This document shows positions 663 to 22,792 of a DNA stretch of 25,481 nt, piece by piece. The position numbers and the translations under genes are program-made. The number at the start of each line of letters is the position of its first letter. Positions within the stretch are counted from its first letter, which is position 1. Under the pieces are notes generated by a model. It was not told the origin of the DNA and made no database searches. It was given only the letters and a program-made list of their open reading frames with translations. Source of the stretch: a virus (lineage: Duplodnaviria; Caudoviricetes). The stretch covers positions 1 to 25,481 of the IMG/VR virus record IMGVR_UViG_3300038595_000030; one strand, given 5' to 3'.

Positions 663-825
663 ACTTTTTCATTATTGTATATTCAATCAATCTGGTTATT
701 TCGCTCTTATTCAAGGCATCAAGGTAGTGGGTAGCATTCTCCCAGCACCGTGCTTTGAAGTGGTCAGAGTCCTTGTATTTGTCGCTCATACTTCTCGAGT
801 TTTTCTTGGAACTTAAGGTAGGCAT
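616..825 (-). CDS. hypothetical protein (true start probably the internal MSDKYK)
   Basis: Fills the gap between yqaJ and VRR-NUC on the same strand; no recognisable motif. Confidence 0.5.
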   Translation of the reverse strand: MPTLSSKKNSRSMSDKYKDSDHFKARCWENATHYLDALNKSEITRLIEYTIMKKYGNTEEPQATRSPGE

Positions 826-1381
826 CGAGCGCTTTGGTGATCTCTGCTTCTATCTCGTTACGCCACACGCGGTGGATATTTACCTTCTTGGTGTTCATTC
901 GGGGGTCATAAGATACGAAATCGAGCCAATTGAGCGTCTCTATGACTACAAAATAATGAATCACCTGCGCCAGGTACTCTGATGGCACCCTATTGATGCG
1001 GATATACTCGATATGCTTCTTAGTGCTGGGGCACTTCACCTCCACACCACCAACATAGGTGTCGCCTTCTTTTACAAGGCCATCGGGTGATACCGCTATA
1101 AATGGATATTTATCGTGCACGCAGAACCCTACCTCTTGGACCTCGTGCCCTGTTACCTCCTCATAAACTCTGATGGCTTCGGGCTCGAAAAGGATGCCGT
1201 GGCGCATAGCTTCTGAGGTGAATGATTCTGGGATAGTACCGCTTAGGCGCTCGGCGATGAGCTCATCGATGAACGGCAGGTTATTCTTCGCGAACACATT
1301 CTTCGCTCGTGATCCAGTGATAACGCCGAGACGGGCTTCGAACCACTCTTGGCTGCGCTGTTGTAGTTTTAACTCTTTCAT
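764..1381 (-). CDS. YqaJ / lambda-exonuclease-like recombination nuclease
   Basis: QRSQEWFEARLGVITGS, MRHGILFEPEA, SPDGL, EVKCP, YLAQV motifs. Confidence 0.92.
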   Translation of the reverse strand: MKELKLQQRSQEWFEARLGVITGSRAKNVFAKNNLPFIDELIAERLSGTIPESFTSEAMRHGILFEPEAIRVYEEVTGHEVQEVGFCVHDKYPFIAVSPDGLVKEGDTYVGGVEVKCPSTKKHIEYIRINRVPSEYLAQVIHYFVVIETLNWLDFVSYDPRMNTKKVNIHRVWRNEIEAEITKALDAYLKFQEKLEKYERQIQGL

Positions 1382-1399: not shown

Positions 1400-1477
1400 T
1401 TAATCGTTTTCGATACCGTTCTCCTCGAGGTCTCGGTTCATTAAATCTATGAGGAGGTCTTTTTTATATCCTTTCAT
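1400..1477 (-). CDS. 25-aa hypothetical peptide
   Basis: Manual translation MKGYKKDLLIDLMNRDLEENGIEND; overlaps end of upstream ORF and fills the gap. Confidence 0.4.
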   Translation of the reverse strand: MKGYKKDLLIDLMNRDLEENGIEND

Positions 1478-1604
1478 TTGTTCTCATATCTTTGATTGGG
1501 AATAGATATTGTTTCCCATCTCGTTCTACAATTGCCGATGTGCCTCTACTTCCAATGTAGGTGTATTCTTCATTGTAGAATACAACCTTATCGCCTGTTT
1601 TCAT
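1464..1604 (-). CDS. 46-aa hypothetical protein (last array gene)
   Basis: Manual translation MKTGDKVVFYNEEYTYIGSRGTSAIVERDGKQYLFPIKDMRTNERI; preceded by the AATTTATCTTATG leader shared with 1870..2109. Confidence 0.6.
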   Translation of the reverse strand: MKTGDKVVFYNEEYTYIGSRGTSAIVERDGKQYLFPIKDMRTNERI

Positions 1605-1640
1605 AAGATAAATTTATTTATCGGTGAGGAGTCTGGCGAC

Positions 1641-1850
1641 TCATCTCTCTTCGGTGTTAAAGGTTTGGTTAAAGTAATTATCAAATCGTGGTTGAGGTAA
1701 TGATTCCCAATCTCCGCCCTCCATATACGCATCTTCAATCTGCTCTTTTTCCATTTGTGCGGCTTGATGAAACCATTGTATTTGCTCTTCAATCATTGTT
1801 GATGAGTCAAATAGTTTGTCCATTAAAAACCCTACTGCTGTTTGTTTCAT
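1641..1850 (-). CDS. 69-aa hypothetical cassette protein (MKQTAV...EKEQI.DAY type)
   Basis: Starts in repeat 1847, ends TFNTEER* in repeat 1641; resembles 2655..2897. Confidence 0.75.
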   Translation of the reverse strand: MKQTAVGFLMDKLFDSSTMIEEQIQWFHQAAQMEKEQIEDAYMEGGDWESLPQPRFDNYFNQTFNTEER

Positions 1851-1869
1851 TTCTCTTTAGTGTTAAAGG

Positions 1870-2109
1870 TTATCCATTGTGAATACATACCTCGTATTCG
1901 CATTTTTTACATTTGATAGCGGTAAAATAAGAACCTTGACCGACTTTAAATTCAGAACCTCCGCAGTGCTTACAATAAAGTGTTTCTACTGGTTCTTCTT
2001 CATAGACTTGTCCTATATGAAACTCTCCATCTTTTTTATATTCTACAAGGTATTCAGGGTAGCATTCATATTTACTAACTAATTCTTTTGGGTCGTGAAA
2101 TATTTTCAT
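1870..2109 (-). CDS. 79-aa zinc-ribbon cassette protein
   Basis: CKHC...CKKC cysteine pairs; stop abuts repeat 1847. Confidence 0.7.
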   Translation of the reverse strand: MKIFHDPKELVSKYECYPEYLVEYKKDGEFHIGQVYEEEPVETLYCKHCGGSEFKVGQGSYFTAIKCKKCEYEVCIHNG

Positions 2110-2144
2110 AAGATAAATTTATTTGCGGTGAGGAGTGCAACGAC

Positions 2145-2288
2145 TCATCTCTCTTTGGTGTTAAAATGTTCTACAATCAACTCAATCGCCATTCCTAAAT
2201 CTTTAGGCTCTGCCATCTCTAAAGTATCATCACCTCTGCGCCACTTGTTGTGATTCTCAAGTAGTGTTACTGCTTCTTGTAGTGTCAT
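2145..2288 (-). CDS. 47-aa hypothetical cassette protein; not in ORF track
   Basis: Manual translation MTLQEAVTLLENHNKWRRGDDTLEMAEPKDLGMAIELIVEHFNTKER; ATGA overlaps at both ends. Confidence 0.7.
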   Translation of the reverse strand: MTLQEAVTLLENHNKWRRGDDTLEMAEPKDLGMAIELIVEHFNTKER

Positions 2289-2497
2289 TTTTGTTTGATT
2301 TTAATTACATAATTTATGCAGCGTGGTATATGTGAATAGTCGTACTTGTGGTAGGTGATGTATGAGTTGATTATTTCAACATCGTTTTCATTTACCCAAT
2401 CTATAAACTCACTATGCTTCTTCATTCCATCAGTTCCATTATAGAAAGATAACTCTCTAATCTCTGATTTGGTGAAGAATCGTTTTAGCCACTTCAT
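2285..2497 (-). CDS. 70-aa hypothetical cassette protein
   Basis: Starts in repeat 2494, ends in degenerate repeat 2285. Confidence 0.65.
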   Translation of the reverse strand: MKWLKRFFTKSEIRELSFYNGTDGMKKHSEFIDWVNENDVEIINSYITYHKYDYSHIPRCINYVIKIKQK

Positions 2498-2658
2498 CTC
2501 TCTTTGGTGTTACAAGTTATTTCAAAAGGAGGGTCATATGGGTTTTTAGTAGTATTTGGCGTATGGTAGTGTATCTGTTCAGATAAAAGTATTACCGCCT
2601 CTTCTGCTGTGATATGGCTTTCCTCTATCAATCTTTGAACTATTTCTGCTTTACTCAT
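2494..2658 (-). CDS. 54-aa hypothetical cassette protein; not in ORF track
   Basis: Manual translation MSKAEIVQRLIEESHITAEEAVILLSEQIHYHTPNTTKNPYDPPFEITCNTKER; spans repeat to repeat exactly. Confidence 0.7.
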   Translation of the reverse strand: MSKAEIVQRLIEESHITAEEAVILLSEQIHYHTPNTTKNPYDPPFEITCNTKER

Positions 2659-2897
2659 CTCTCTTTGGTGTTAAAGGTGTCGTTGTAGTATTGCTCTGCT
2701 TTTTCAAGTGGAGTACCATCGGTGTAATCACATTGACCATCAATATGAGCATCTATAATCTCCTCCCACTCTTTCTCAAGCATTGATTGCGCTAACTTAA
2801 TAGCTAACTCTATGCTTTCCGTTGAATTGCCTATGTCTTTTGTGTTTCCATAAAAAACATCTAGCCGTTCAATTAACTCTTGTATTGGTGTTTTCAT
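2655..2897 (-). CDS. 80-aa hypothetical cassette protein (MKTP...EKE..IIDA...EQYYN type)
   Basis: Spans repeat 2894 to repeat 2655, ends TFNTKER*. Confidence 0.75.
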   Translation of the reverse strand: MKTPIQELIERLDVFYGNTKDIGNSTESIELAIKLAQSMLEKEWEEIIDAHIDGQCDYTDGTPLEKAEQYYNDTFNTKER

Positions 2898-2909
2898 CTC
2901 TCTTTGGTG

Positions 2910-2999
2910 TTAAAGGTTCTGAACTATAAAATAACCTATCCATTTACCTAACTGCCAGCATCCTATAATAAATACAATGTCTTTTAATATCTTTTTCAT
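2910..2999 (-). CDS. 29-aa hydrophobic cassette peptide; not in ORF track
   Basis: Manual translation MKKILKDIVFIIGCWQLGKWIGYFIVQNL; starts in repeat 2996, stops at the TAA inside repeat 2894. Confidence 0.55.
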   Translation of the reverse strand: MKKILKDIVFIIGCWQLGKWIGYFIVQNL

Positions 3000-3075
3000 T
3001 TCTCTTTTGTTTTAAAGGTTTTATTTGCGTTTATAGCCATAATTTGGTTCTTCTTGCAAAAGAAAACTAAAGGTG

Positions 3076-3174
3076 TCAAGCATCTTTTGCTTCTCCAATT
3101 TCTTCTATGGTTGGGCGTTTTCCATCTGCCCACAATCCTTTATAGTGATTGATTAGTTCTTTTAAATTTCTCAT
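3076..3174 (-). CDS. 32-aa cassette peptide, possibly truncated
   Basis: Manual translation MRNLKELINHYKGLWADGKRPTIEEIGEAKDA; starts in repeat 3171, stops in a 19-nt segment duplicated at 3419. Confidence 0.45.
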   Translation of the reverse strand: MRNLKELINHYKGLWADGKRPTIEEIGEAKDA

Positions 3175-3186
3175 TTCTCTTTAGTA

Positions 3187-3405
3187 TTAAAGGTTTTCTA
3201 TCTCTTTTCTCACTTCTTTCCAATACTGACCGAATGGATTAGGCACTAAAATATCTTCAAGGTATGTGGTTACCTCATCTACCGCAATCAATGCTGATTC
3301 TTTAGCAAGTCTAATTCTAATGCCATCCACAAGTTCGTTTACTTGTGATAGGTTAATAGTTATAAATTTACTGACTAACTCTTGTGCTTTCTCTTTTGGT
3401 GTCAT
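3187..3405 (-). CDS. 72-aa hypothetical cassette protein (MTPKEKA.EL...YW.EV..EIE.L type)
   Basis: Starts in repeat 3402, stops at the TAA inside repeat 3171. Confidence 0.75.
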   Translation of the reverse strand: MTPKEKAQELVSKFITINLSQVNELVDGIRIRLAKESALIAVDEVTTYLEDILVPNPFGQYWKEVRKEIENL

Positions 3406-3480
3406 CTCTCTTTTGTTTTAAAGGTGTCAAGCATCTTGTGCGGTTTACTTGACATAGTGTTCTATTAAAGACACAAAACC

Positions 3481-3612
3481 CTATCGTTCTGTATCATTAT
3501 TGGTTTCTAATTTCTCAAGCGTGTCCTTTAGAATCACATTCCAAGACCATTTGTCCTTGTCAGCGTTCCAAAGTTTCTCGTACATCTCCAGTAGTATCTC
3601 TCTATTTGTCAT
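3481..3612 (-). CDS. 43-aa hypothetical protein; not in ORF track
   Basis: Manual translation MTNREILLEMYEKLWNADKDKWSWNVILKDTLEKLETNNDTER. Confidence 0.55.
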   Translation of the reverse strand: MTNREILLEMYEKLWNADKDKWSWNVILKDTLEKLETNNDTER

Positions 3613-3660: not shown

Positions 3661-3879
3661 TTAAGAATTAGCCATCTCAGTAATATCAACACCGCATCTA
3701 TCCGCTATGGCCTTGAACTGTTCCTTATTCGTTACCCTGGCCTCATAGGTCCACCCTTTGATGTGTCGGATGATGGTATAGCCCTCAACATTCAATCTAC
3801 GCACATCGCTTGGCTCTGCGATGATGTACACGCTGTGTAATTCGTTCTTATTCATTTTTATTGTCTCTATGGTTATCAA
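3661..3879 (-). CDS. hypothetical protein (start may be the internal MNKNEL)
   Basis: ORF track; co-oriented and packed in the operon. Confidence 0.6.
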   Translation of the reverse strand: MITIETIKMNKNELHSVYIIAEPSDVRRLNVEGYTIIRHIKGWTYEARVTNKEQFKAIADRCGVDITEMANS

Positions 3880-4165
3880 TCTCTTGGCGGAGCATTGCGA
3901 GCTCCTCTAAGTCCATACCAAGCACCAGCTCGATGTTGTACTGTATCTTAGTGAGGAGCTCTGGATCCGTATCATCCAATGCAGATAACGGACCTTTAAG
4001 GGTGGCCTCCATATCTCGCTCCAGAGAGCGCATCTTATTCTTGATGGTATGCTTATATAGACCAGTGCCTTTGAGCTCGTCCATCTGCTCGAGAGTGGCT
4101 TGTAAGAGGGCCACGAGCTTTACACCCTCTTTGAATACTTTATACTTCTGCTGTTGTGTGGTCAT
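3848..4165 (-). CDS. hypothetical helical protein
   Basis: ORF track; operon packing. Confidence 0.7.
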   Translation of the reverse strand: MTTQQQKYKVFKEGVKLVALLQATLEQMDELKGTGLYKHTIKNKMRSLERDMEATLKGPLSALDDTDPELLTKIQYNIELVLGMDLEELAMLRQEIDNHRDNKNE

Positions 4166-4168
4166 TGC

Positions 4169-4375
4169 TTAGAGTTTTAGCCATCTTCTGCGGCGTTCAT
4201 ACTTTCTAATCAGCTGGGCGCTATTATCAAGTAGCGCTACCACATCATCATTCCATTGCGTGCGTGATGCCGTGATGGTGATGTTGAGAATCTCCCAGCG
4301 GAGCTCAGCGATATACATATCAATGTATTTCTTGTGGCGCATTGTGCGCATCATTCTATTTATCAGCGTTCTCAT
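4169..4375 (-). CDS. hypothetical basic protein
   Basis: ORF track; operon packing. Confidence 0.6.
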   Translation of the reverse strand: MRTLINRMMRTMRHKKYIDMYIAELRWEILNITITASRTQWNDDVVALLDNSAQLIRKYERRRRWLKL

Positions 4376-4958
4376 AATATCCTTGTTTGAAGTTTACAGC
4401 GGCCATCTGAGCCTTCTTCTCATTGTATAGCGCTGAGAATGCCGCTTTAATCTTATCACGCTCATTGGTGAGCTTCTTCATCTGCTTACTAAGCTCCTCC
4501 AATTCTTTGGTGAGGTCCTCGCGCACCATCTTGAGGTGATCGCGGAGCATTTGAACCTTTGCCTCAGCCTCCTCACGGAGTTGCACCTCACGCTTGATGG
4601 CCTGGCGCATCTCAACCTGTGTGATGGGCTTGTGGTATTCCTCACCAAGGTAAGAGCTAACGAAGTCGAAAATATCGCAGTAGAGCTCGAAGTGTCGCAG
4701 GCGCTTTGTCGGATCGCTATGGTAACGAAGGGCGTGCTGCTTCTCAGCGTGGACCACTGAACAGTGGCTCATTGCCTTTACCTTACCATCGGGAGTCTCA
4801 AAGGTGAACATACGAGCTATCTCATTGGTCGTGAAGTGGGGGCGTAGGGCCACCATCAGCGCACTGCGGGCATCAACCACCTCCCTGCGGCGGGTGCGCA
4901 GAGAGGGGTCAATGTTAAAGTGCTCGTGCACCGCTTCTATTAAATCGAGGTGATTCAT
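4356..4958 (-). CDS. DnaA domain IV (Bac_DnaA_C)-like HTH protein with C-terminal coiled coil
   Basis: LIEAVHEHFNI...RTRRREVVDAR...TTNEIARMF...SHCSVVHA resembles the DnaA R.R....AR...L..IG..F...DH.TV.HA pattern; start placed at MNHL (4958), just after the ssb stop. Confidence 0.6.
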   Translation of the reverse strand: MNHLDLIEAVHEHFNIDPSLRTRRREVVDARSALMVALRPHFTTNEIARMFTFETPDGKVKAMSHCSVVHAEKQHALRYHSDPTKRLRHFELYCDIFDFVSSYLGEEYHKPITQVEMRQAIKREVQLREEAEAKVQMLRDHLKMVREDLTKELEELSKQMKKLTNERDKIKAAFSALYNEKKAQMAAVNFKQGYYENADK

Positions 4959-4959
4959 A

Positions 4960-5505
4960 TCAGAACGGCATATCATCTACATCCTCTTCCTCAAACGCTG
5001 CAGGAGCAGTGGCCGTTGGGATGGTTGTGTCTGGCACCTCCTCAGAGAGCGGTGCTGTGATTTTCACATCTTCCCAAAGGTCTGAATCATCGGCGCTATC
5101 GATATCATTCAATGAGAGGACAATACCTTTATTGATATATGCCGTTAAACCCTTTTTTCCTGCCATCTCCCAGCTTTTAATGAACGCACGGACACGGAGT
5201 ACCGAACCATTGCCGATAAGGCCTGTAAACGGCGTTTTTGAGGTATCCCACAATTGTGGTGGGTTGTTGCTTTTCAAGCGCACTGTTGGCTCATCATACT
5301 TAAACGTGCCGTCCTGGCGCTTGATGTTCAAGTGAGAGAGAATCTTCATTGACTCAAGCACCGCTTGGCTCTCCTTATCAAGGGTGAGCTCCACTTGGTA
5401 CTTCTCACTAAGTTTGTTGGGTCCGCTCTTTTCCGTGAGCTGTGCCCAATTCGCTGTACCAGTCAATACTGCTGATACGCCTTTTGCAAAATCTAACTTT
5501 GCCAT
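4960..5505 (-). CDS. ssb: single-stranded DNA-binding protein, T7 gp2.5/DUF2815-like
   Basis: G.A.WA.L..., KYQVEL, IGNGS.LRV, GL..Y motifs; acidic tail ending EEEDVDDMPF. Confidence 0.75.
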   Translation of the reverse strand: MAKLDFAKGVSAVLTGTANWAQLTEKSGPNKLSEKYQVELTLDKESQAVLESMKILSHLNIKRQDGTFKYDEPTVRLKSNNPPQLWDTSKTPFTGLIGNGSVLRVRAFIKSWEMAGKKGLTAYINKGIVLSLNDIDSADDSDLWEDVKITAPLSEEVPDTTIPTATAPAAFEEEDVDDMPF

Positions 5506-5851: not shown

Positions 5852-5999
5852 CTGCCAAAATATGAGTATCTATTTACCTACTCGGGCCGTCAAGGCCCGA
5901 TAGGGAAATAAATACGAAGGCAGAGATTTTGTTTTTTTATTTTTTTTCTCCCTATATATAGCAGGAGAAAAAAAACAATTAACAGGAAATTGTTAATAA
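5852..5999. repeat. structured dispersed repeat, copy 1
   Basis: Three inverted-repeat modules; 44/46 identical core to 22512-22557. Confidence 0.9.
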
Positions 6000-6071
6000 C
6001 GACCCCTTTTGTGTCAAATATGAGACTTTAAAAAAGAGCCAAAAACCACCCTCTGAGAAGGTATAAATAAG

Positions 6072-7893: not shown

Positions 7894-8270
7894 TATAGCT
7901 CCTCTTCTATCACGGGATTGCAGTACTCCGCATCGGGATTCGCTTCGCAGTACGCCTTTGCATACTCCGCAGCGTGTTTAGAACCAAAGGTGTGAATCCC
8001 TACGGGTACGGGCCATACTATCGCAGAATCCCAAGCCGCTAAAGGTTCATCACGCCAAAGCACATCAACGCTATATAGAGGGCTTTGTACCTCACATATT
8101 GGGTTGCCTTCTTCATCCGTTCCCCAAGTCTCGCAAAGGTTGCCTAAGATGACCACCATTACCACCGCATTGGTGTAGTGTTCGTTTCCTTCTTCATCGG
8201 TTGTGGTGATTAGGGCTTTTGCTGCTTCAAAGGCTTCAATAGATGCGAAGCCGTATTTTCTCATTTTCAT
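7893..8270 (-). CDS. acidic protein associated with the fibre module (possible assembly chaperone)
   Basis: Position after the fibre gene; function inferred from position only. Confidence 0.55.
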   Translation of the reverse strand: MKMRKYGFASIEAFEAAKALITTTDEEGNEHYTNAVVMVVILGNLCETWGTDEEGNPICEVQSPLYSVDVLWRDEPLAAWDSAIVWPVPVGIHTFGSKHAAEYAKAYCEANPDAEYCNPVIEEEL

Positions 8271-8875
8271 CGTTTGATTCTTTTTAATCCGTACTTATTT
8301 TTTCTGTGACCATTTAACATATTTAGTAAGTTAGATTTTGAGATTCCTAAATCTTCAGCAGCGTCTGCAGTACAAGCATATTCTTTCCCCGTGTATTCAC
8401 AATATACTGGATATGAGCGTTTCAATTGCATTTTACGAACCGCTTCTCTTGGCATCTTTTTACCATACCAAGTCCCTACTTTACCCCATTGAGGATGTTT
8501 TTCACCTTTCTTTGCATCGGATAATTTTTTTCTGTGTTCCTCTGTAAAAAAAGTATTTCCGCTCTTTGCTTCAGATATTTTTTTCTTTGTATCCTCTGTG
8601 TGTCTAACAACTCCCTTCCATTTATTAGTAAGGTTGTACGACATTGGGTCATTCATCGCATCTAATTCCTCAAGAATGAATTCCTCTAACTCTCTATGGT
8701 CGTGACCAAAGTAAAGAATCTCTCTTGAAAAAGATTCCTTACGCTTTTTATAGGCTTTATTAAAAAAGTGACCGCCTCCAACATAGCCATCTTTTGGATG
8801 ACCAGTATGGCTTCCGACATACCACTTATTGTTAGAGGCATCAGTCCACTTATATACAAAGCCTATGGTACACAT
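8267..8875 (-). CDS. free-standing GIY-YIG homing endonuclease with NUMOD3 repeats and C-terminal HTH
   Basis: GFVY...WYVG; HTEDTKKKISEA and FTEEHRKKLSDAKKGEKHPQWGK; AAEDLGIS..NL; AT-rich. Confidence 0.85.
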   Translation of the reverse strand: MCTIGFVYKWTDASNNKWYVGSHTGHPKDGYVGGGHFFNKAYKKRKESFSREILYFGHDHRELEEFILEELDAMNDPMSYNLTNKWKGVVRHTEDTKKKISEAKSGNTFFTEEHRKKLSDAKKGEKHPQWGKVGTWYGKKMPREAVRKMQLKRSYPVYCEYTGKEYACTADAAEDLGISKSNLLNMLNGHRKNKYGLKRIKR

Positions 8876-22492: not shown

Positions 22493-22643
22493 TTTTACCA
22501 GCTATGCACGCATCTATTTACCTACTCGGGCCGATAAGGCCCGATAGGGAAATAAATGCAAATGGTAAAATCGCTTGATTTTGTTTTTTTTCTCCCTATA
22601 TATAGCAGGAGAAAAAAGAAAATTAACAGAAAATTGTTAATAA
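22493..22643. repeat. structured dispersed repeat, copy 2
   Basis: Same three modules and order as 5852-5999. Confidence 0.9.
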
Positions 22644-22792
22644 AGTACCTTTTTCACCTTGTAGTGCCTCCCCTCGAAAATCATCAAAACCTCATAAGTT
22701 TGGTCTGGATTGAGCACCAAAATGGGTGAATAGTTATGTATATCAAATAACCAAAGCGCTATTTTCCACGCCTCATCTCTACTTAATCCCAT
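22637..22792 (-). CDS. 51-aa hypothetical protein coupled to terL; not in ORF track
   Basis: TGATG overlap with terL stop; MGLSRDEAWKIALWLFDIHNYSPILVLNPDQTYEVLMIFEGRHYKVKKVLY. Confidence 0.55.
   Translation of the reverse strand: MGLSRDEAWKIALWLFDIHNYSPILVLNPDQTYEVLMIFEGRHYKVKKVLY

Follow-up and report, generated by a model that had tools for sequence, protein, structure and literature searches.

The locus examined here raises the question of why a series of small phage genes should be joined, one after another, by copies of the same 24-nt sequence, and whether this repeat marks the points at which such genes are exchanged. It lies in a 25,481-nt stretch of DNA (positions 1 to 25,481 of the IMG/VR virus record IMGVR_UViG_3300038595_000030, Caudoviricetes), referred to below as the window, which is a linear virus record with an estimated completeness of 39% and whose products include a terminase, a major head protein, an endolysin, a YqaJ exonuclease and a gp2.5-like protein. 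A preliminary description of the sequence had proposed that the repeat is a portable stop/start junction at which genes are gained, lost and shuffled. The results support this proposal, as gene content varies between conserved flanks and the breakpoints fall inside the repeat. Regarding the mechanism, the 24-nt repeat is probably a shared gene joint through which small phage genes are exchanged by homologous annealing across a core of about 20 nt, and not by a site-specific integrase.

Nine copies of the repeat are present on the minus strand, exactly where the preliminary description had placed them, with 0-3 mismatches to ACCTTTAACACCAAAGAGAGATGA and irregular periods of 102-349 nt, and each of them supplies the ATG of the following open reading frame (ORF). 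No copy arose in 300 runs of a first-order Markov model of the region, even when up to 5 mismatches were allowed. The higher AT content attributed to the array was also found (GC 0.35 versus 0.48 and 0.49 in the flanks). Besides the ATG of the next gene, the repeat contains two stops, a TGA overlapping that ATG (ATGA) and, 15 nt upstream, a TAA in frame with it. They close two of the three frames, so that a gene arriving in either of these is terminated and fusion is blocked. Translation was followed in 296 unique repeat-to-repeat units, in which the upstream frame ended at the ATGA overlap (142 units), at the internal TAA (62), elsewhere within 30 nt (18) or further upstream (63), and read past the repeat in the remaining 11 (five at copies that lack the TGA, five along the third frame, which is open, and one by in-frame fusion). 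That the third frame is so rarely used suggests that termination at the joint has been selected for. The conservation was also considered as the result of a C-terminal peptide signal (FNTKER), a reading that was rejected because copies with the stop at the internal TAA are conserved to a similar degree (C at -9, 0.81 versus 0.84).

The breakpoint sample comprised 251 loci, after 18 had been left out (window copies, duplicates and a chance match), which yielded 632 copies, 477 unique contexts and 418 contexts with full flanks. Two contexts were considered to share the downstream start when it was at least 80% identical. Unrelated upstream DNA was found in 266 of the 280 pairs with a common downstream gene start (64 of 67 by family) and, reciprocally, unrelated downstream genes followed in 242 of the 253 pairs with common upstream DNA (64 of 65 by family). 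Identity drops across the repeat from about 0.92 to a background of 0.28-0.31, and the homology between phages switches inside the repeat, as the preliminary description had predicted. In a control drawn from the same kind of loci, the upstream neighbour differed in 173 of 182 pairs of repeat-led small genes versus 5 of 44 pairs of other small genes. This breakpoint evidence makes a strong case for the repeat as a marker of the points at which small genes would be swapped.

The same picture is seen around the genes of the window itself. A two-gene unit (2518-2145) recurs in locus L110 at 98% identity with different neighbours on both sides, L122 carries an additional gene at the window copy 2494, and in L002 and L027 a window gene starts behind other upstream DNA. 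Relatives with the same flanks were taken as the 16 of 34 YqaJ loci that also showed a 105-aa gene (3848..4165, minus strand, like the genes, repeat copies and adaptors of the array and its flanks located below; 65-74% identity in the 16 relatives). The interval between the flanking genes is 154-1295 nt in these relatives versus 2470 nt in the window; 11 of them are free of the repeat and the other five have 1-3 copies (one degenerate) and other cargo.

The repeat is widespread. About 670 IMG/VR stretches contain its exact 21-nt pattern, 124 loci with it having been taken from 12 of the 64 parts of that database, and two- and three-copy patterns added 65, 28 and 19 stretches, some of which overlap those already obtained. 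Copies were counted in 48 selected records, of which 47 were large viral contigs and one was a bin; each had 1-21 copies, all on a single strand, and the reversed control pattern matched once. Repeat-bearing phage records range from about 30 kb to more than 200 kb, and the 13 genomes with an estimated completeness of 85% or more form several groups, between which two genomes often have just 1-9 proteins in common. None of the 251 loci had copies on both strands, and the repeat was in register with the ATG in 462 of the 477 contexts. Its core, from -15 to +3, is 96-100% conserved save three positions, which is partly an effect of locus selection, and the 5' arm fades gradually (66-90% at -22 to -17). 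The repeat includes a 4-bp dyad (CTTT-N6-AAAG) with two variable positions in its 6-nt spacer. No hairpin was found (folding z-scores of -0.16, -0.65 and +0.67 for repeat-holding stretches), nor any terminator stem-loop in the fold and terminator checks, and a scan for sigma-70-type promoters, which leaves Bacteroidota-type promoters outside, found none at the copies (11 in the region versus 11.1 expected). Dense arrays were also observed in fragments of big phages, with 15 copies in about 3.7 kb (L287, G021:C1:17000-24500) and 10 copies in about 1.8 kb (L288, G027:C1:1-3500).

To map the crossovers within the repeat, pairs whose shared flank was at least 98% identical were used (28 and 35 families). 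Positions -23 to -17 track the upstream gene (0.96-1.00) and positions +5 to +8 the downstream gene (0.97-1.00), and positions -12, -9 and -1 follow neither of them fully (0.74, 0.84 and 0.71 with the upstream gene; 0.65, 0.70 and 0.87 with the downstream gene). Exchange 5' of -12 is required by seven families and exchange 3' of -9 by nine, so there is no single bond at which all crossovers could have occurred, even ignoring -1. The exchanges are thus spread over about 20 nt, which fits mismatch-tolerant homologous annealing and would not be predicted from a fixed cut site. The enzymes could be phage exonucleases and strand-annealing proteins, or host recombination, acting during co-infection or replication. 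Each swap would leave an intact stop and an intact start in both partners, so that recombinants would survive and the joint would spread.

Candidates for such enzymes were found in the near-complete genomes. An exonuclease VIII-like cluster occurs in 12 of the 13 (the four members checked were all DUF3799), ERF was confirmed in 3 and Sak in 2, and in two of the eight genomes without an identified annealing protein an unannotated candidate lies beside the exonuclease. Phage Rad52-like recombinases work on short, diverged homology, as reported in the available text of PMC3945230. The integrase family PF00589 was found in none of 47 viral records (0 of 9 near-complete ones) nor in the window, a result that covers the phage side only and includes many fragments; resolvases and reverse transcriptases were not found in the 18 viral records searched for them. 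The preliminary description had likewise seen neither an attC hairpin nor an integrase. On the other hand, its suggestion that the YqaJ exonuclease belongs to the machinery was not sustained. YqaJ was found in 2 of 48 repeat-bearing records (the first pass of this search was loose), repeat-free relatives retain the same YqaJ and gp2.5-like genes, and its role as general recombination machinery was rejected.

Several observations weigh against exchange by annealing at the repeat, or limit it. The pairs compared are not independent, and the conservation appears inflated because every locus was selected by the repeat. Variation at the locus also occurs in the absence of the repeat (L131, L140-L142); since several repeat-free relatives differ in gene content, the locus is a general hotspot, with the repeat as one route of variation among others. 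In addition, one gene of the window is cut off at a different short homology. Within the repeat, the A or G at position -1, just before the ATG, varies less within a locus than chance would give (uniformity of 0.75 versus 0.50, 111 loci), an excess that -12 and -9 do not show. Two of the variable positions lie in the dyad spacer, and a mismatch-tolerant recombinase could also decouple them. Moreover, the length of the core is close to the minimum for efficient annealing, and mismatches in it are frequent; for Red-beta, the available text of PMC3945230 puts the minimal efficient pairing segment at 23-27 bp. Eight of the 13 genomes yielded no annealing protein, with candidates picked by eye and not by an exhaustive scan. 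Finally, the evidence consists of comparisons of assembled sequences.

A second word of this kind bears on the mechanism. The sister junction AACCTTTAAATCAGAATARRATG, which encodes ..TFKSE followed by a stop, with the ATG 2 nt later, was found in about 700 stretches (L313, L359, L361 and L505-L635 among them). It shuffles likewise (34/37 and 34/35 pairs) and lacks the CTTT-N6-AAAG dyad. One of 131 loci and none of 214 contained both words, these loci being stretches of a few kb or less and not whole genomes. This near-absence of co-occurrence suggests separate gene pools, and such joints may therefore partition gene flow. As a further observation, homologues of the 72-aa cargo gene described below stand behind other recurring junction words (..EIEKL, ..EIESI, ..KTK and ..KTNNL, each followed by a stop; L330, L337, L343, L345, L349 and L381), hinting at more joint families. 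It could even be speculated that junction words are address codes that split the small-gene pool of the phages of one host group into separate exchange networks across phage families, served by a dedicated, unrecognised mismatch-tolerant recombinase or binding factor. We consider this unlikely; if true, phages would own an integron-equivalent with several hundred cassettes.

A related idea is that the repeat is targeted by a dedicated site-specific recombinase that tolerates mismatches, either encoded by the host or belonging to a family not yet recognised, with cassettes inserted and excised as in integrons. The very sharp, near-invariant core (sharpened in part by locus selection), the 4-bp dyad around a 6-nt spacer and the same word in phages with few common proteins, in one orientation per record, are all features that such a target could have. 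Nevertheless, it remains an improbable explanation, given that exchanges occur at more than one position, that the 5' arm erodes gradually, and that the sister junction shuffles equally yet has no dyad. Furthermore, no integrase, resolvase or reverse transcriptase was found in the phage records searched, and there is no isolate chromosome among the 10 matches to the repeat in GTDB, which are all metagenome bins with genes that look phage-like by eye.

A regulator binding site was also considered, in which case shuffling would be secondary. A protein with a DnaA C-terminal-like helix-turn-helix is encoded in the window (4356..4976, a conserved flank, with a profile score below the cut-off), and this family is present in 13 of the 14 repeat-bearing genomes compared, across otherwise dissimilar phages. 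In addition, one variant of the repeat is a single mismatch away from a relaxed DnaA box. However, the protein is also present in relatives without the repeat at this locus, and the ATG register and the breakpoints are explained without a regulator, which makes it very unlikely that the repeat is kept mainly for this purpose.

The rearranged gene orders could also be thought of as assembly chimeras at a short repeat, since all data are metagenomic assemblies and 26 of 79 matches lie within 200 nt of contig ends versus 3.1 expected. A misjoin in the assembly graph would need an exact shared word of about 20 nt (with k of at least 21), however, and same-upstream pairs first differ at -12 in seven of 28 families and at -10, -9 and -7 in one each. 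The order of the window genes was found at 100% in two other contigs and same-flank relatives vary in cargo and length, so that chimeras are a highly improbable source of these orders.

Least credible is a mere convergent translation-initiation motif, which would account for the ATG register and for the A at -13 and -6, both positive for initiation in Flavobacterium johnsoniae, but neither for the G at -3 (98%) and the predominant C at -12, since A is the preferred base there in the same study (PMC6847099, available text), nor for the absence of the repeat from the core gene starts of the window, nor for the switch of homology inside the repeat. The repeat thus fits the initiation determinants of F. 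johnsoniae only partly, and the convergent-motif reading is largely refuted by the homology switch, the crossover map and the matched control. A CRISPR-like array was rejected as well, because the spacers are genes of 100-350 nt.

An exchange joint of this type has several relatives among known systems. Integron cassettes form arrays of small promoterless genes on the same strand, drawn from a large pool and delimited by repeats. The phage array is similarly composed of mobile single-gene units in one orientation (some units holding two genes), but it has no attC-type hairpin and no single crossover bond, no integrase was found, and its carrier is a phage.

The promoter-early stem-loops (PeSLs) of T4-type phages are, according to the available text of PMC2839356 and PMC4122927, short repeats flanking small unknown genes in variable regions; genes are inserted, deleted or replaced through homologous exchange at these elements, with crossovers at varying places and no integrase found. 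In the same way, indels between relatives end in the 24-nt repeat, its crossovers vary in place and no integrase was found. Unlike the PeSL, an intergenic promoter and terminator of T4-like phages as far as those texts describe it, the repeat overlaps coding ends, contains stops and a start, has neither hairpin nor sigma-70 promoter, and is common to phages of about 30 to more than 200 kb with little shared protein content. Mini-circles have been shown for PeSLs in those reports.

The boundary sequences of modular theory could not be found at most boundaries, with single cases reported (PMC3029335, available text). The repeat resembles them in being a short conserved sequence at gene boundaries that is common to otherwise unrelated modules. 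It differs in that one word serves 286 gene-start families in the sample, in its arrays of up to 21 copies per record and in having a nearly separate sister word. The start-associated sequences of cluster K mycobacteriophages (SAS and ESAS) are oriented short repeats just upstream of the starts of different genes, and their authors mention possible recombination; the SAS is a 13-bp Shine-Dalgarno-like word, each ESAS site tends to accompany one gene family, and shuffling at these sites is not shown (PMC3203893, available text). The 24-nt repeat is also fixed upstream of start codons in one orientation (462/477; both strands in 0/251), but it lacks a Shine-Dalgarno-like core and 17-bp inverted repeats, holds stop codons and marks breakpoints. 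A variable small-gene region is described in PMC4503421 and, in its available text, is not ascribed to such repeats.

A survey of the open-access literature by title and abstract returned no description of the 24-nt word or of a stop/start joint shared across phage groups. The repeat works like PeSL cassettes or boundary sequences, but as a stop/start joint and not as a promoter-terminator, and it is real, widespread and apparently undescribed. It bears on the old question of whether phage mosaicism arises through short conserved boundary sequences or through illegitimate recombination followed by selection, for which clear boundary sequences are scarce. Here, a single 24-nt word marks the breakpoints of 286 gene-start families in the sample, as seen against a matched control and in a map of crossovers within the repeat. 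It also offers a defined substrate for testing phage annealing proteins and a sequence tag with which to harvest the mobile small-gene pool of these phages.

This pool is large. The sample contained 476 unique complete ORFs (median 62 aa); those of at least 25 aa were grouped by single linkage into 171 families of up to 112 members, and the Chao1 estimate for the gene-start families served by the repeat is about 870. Some repeat-bounded units hold two genes or a truncated gene. The suggestion of the preliminary description that the cargo could be host-takeover or anti-defence peptides found no support in profile searches: none of the 10 array genes scanned reached the Pfam cut-off, and PHROGs returned one family of unknown function; in the pool, 8 of 108 representatives reached the Pfam cut-off, including two YqaJ genes. 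A search of the ESM Atlas with the cargo gave solely unnamed viral clusters. In L013 and L152-L154 the YqaJ exonuclease genes take their start codon from the repeat, which can therefore lead core genes besides small cargo. The expectation that the same genes would be bounded by the repeat elsewhere held in part. In the commonest family, searched for independently of the repeat, 59 of 103 starts were preceded by it and the rest were not. The cargo families are not tied to it: among 51 distant homologues of the 72-aa gene, 2 are preceded by the repeat (27 of 78 loci having been dropped as duplicates, edges or starts not located). Forty-one ORFs finish in the tail ..YYN.TFNTKE[RK] typical of the commonest family, which suggests that the joint originated from the end of the coding sequence in a prolific family of small genes (..YYNETFNTKE[RK]-stop).

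In the window, the first copy of the repeat (3402..3425, two mismatches) stands behind upstream DNA that leads three other genes in L025, L052 and L088, and is followed by a 72-aa gene (3187..3405) of the unknown-function family phrog_21441. This gene ends at the internal TAA of the second copy (3171..3194), whose downstream gene has unrelated upstream DNA in L002 and L070. That downstream gene encodes 32 aa (3076..3174) and is likely truncated, as it has 94 aa in L002. A 19-nt homology, AAGATGCTTGACACCTTTA, occurs twice in the window (about 3071-3089 and 3417-3435), and one of its copies sits where the 32-aa gene diverges from its 94-aa form, a breakpoint outside the main repeat. The third copy (2996..3019, at most three mismatches to the consensus) leads a 29-aa hydrophobic ORF (2910..2999), and the fourth (2894..2917, no mismatches), with an internal TAA stop, leads the 80-aa gene (2655..2897) of the commonest cargo family (..YYN.TFNTKE[RK]). 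The fifth copy (2655..2678, ATGA overlap) starts a 54-aa gene (2494..2658), and L122 has this unit (2681-2493) at 99%, ending in repeats; its extra gene is inserted at the sixth copy (2494..2517, ATGA overlap). There begins the two-gene unit that moves as one in L110 (2145..2497; 70 aa at 2285-2497 and 47 aa at 2145-2288). At the seventh copy (2145..2168, ATGA overlap) L110 has the same upstream and a different downstream side, and at the eighth (1847..1870, upstream stop at its edge) L027 has the same downstream start behind unrelated DNA. The ninth (1641..1664, ATGA overlap) again has at most three mismatches. The remaining cargo genes are one of 79 aa with two CxxC pairs (1870..2109), one of 69 aa (1641..1850) and one of 46 aa (1464..1604). 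A 43-aa cargo gene (3481..3612) is led by the repeat in other phages and not in the window.

Some details of the preliminary description need revision. The stops at the internal TAA in two genes (..ENL and ..QNL) and at the repeat edge in one (..HNG) are as it reported. Of its six ORFs reading through to the ATGA overlap, four are substantial (80, 54, 47 and 69 aa) and the other two are 17 and 14 codons long. A degenerate tenth copy at 2285 was rejected; this site is an ordinary ATGA overlap, because it has 9 mismatches in 24 and its flanking genes move together in L110. The 8- and 9-aa ORFs are the beginning of a second adaptor of about 45 nt, running from the repeat ATG to a new ATG (2107..2148 and 1602..1644), which leads the 79-aa and 46-aa genes and precedes different genes in 10 contexts. 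Most adaptor copies outside the window contain TAAATTTG, which presumably resembles the -7 promoter box of Bacteroidota. Among the cassette ORFs, described as mostly unrelated, the 80-aa and 69-aa genes are weakly alike (35% over 57 aa, in part the shared repeat-encoded tail). The array does lie between YqaJ and the gp2.5-like gene, but the latter is five ORFs from the first copy and does not adjoin it.

The conserved flanks comprise, on one side, the YqaJ-family exonuclease (764..1381; PF09588, E=2e-26), preceded by a 25-aa ORF (..ENGIEND; 1400..1477) where relatives have a similarly ending small gene, and, on the other, the 105-aa gene, the helix-turn-helix gene and the gp2.5-like single-stranded DNA-binding or annealing protein (4960..5505; phrog_112, E=3e-8). 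The array DNA and the 80-aa protein had no match among 50,697 annotated phage records. The host is likely a member of the Bacteroidota, according to two weak lines of evidence: the core gene starts of the window are rich in A and show a Shine-Dalgarno-like 5-mer in 3 of 28 cases, and, of the 9 distinct GTDB contigs that contain the repeat, 5 are labelled as Bacteroidota-group, one of these being probably a chance match. A 143-nt AT-rich intergenic element occurs in two copies that are 84% identical (5868-6010 and 22512-22654); it has a near-palindromic core around TATATATA, is partly conserved in relatives and is possibly an origin or a promoter. Finally, a gene bearing NUMOD3 (8267-8875), likely a homing endonuclease, is located amid the tail and lysis genes.

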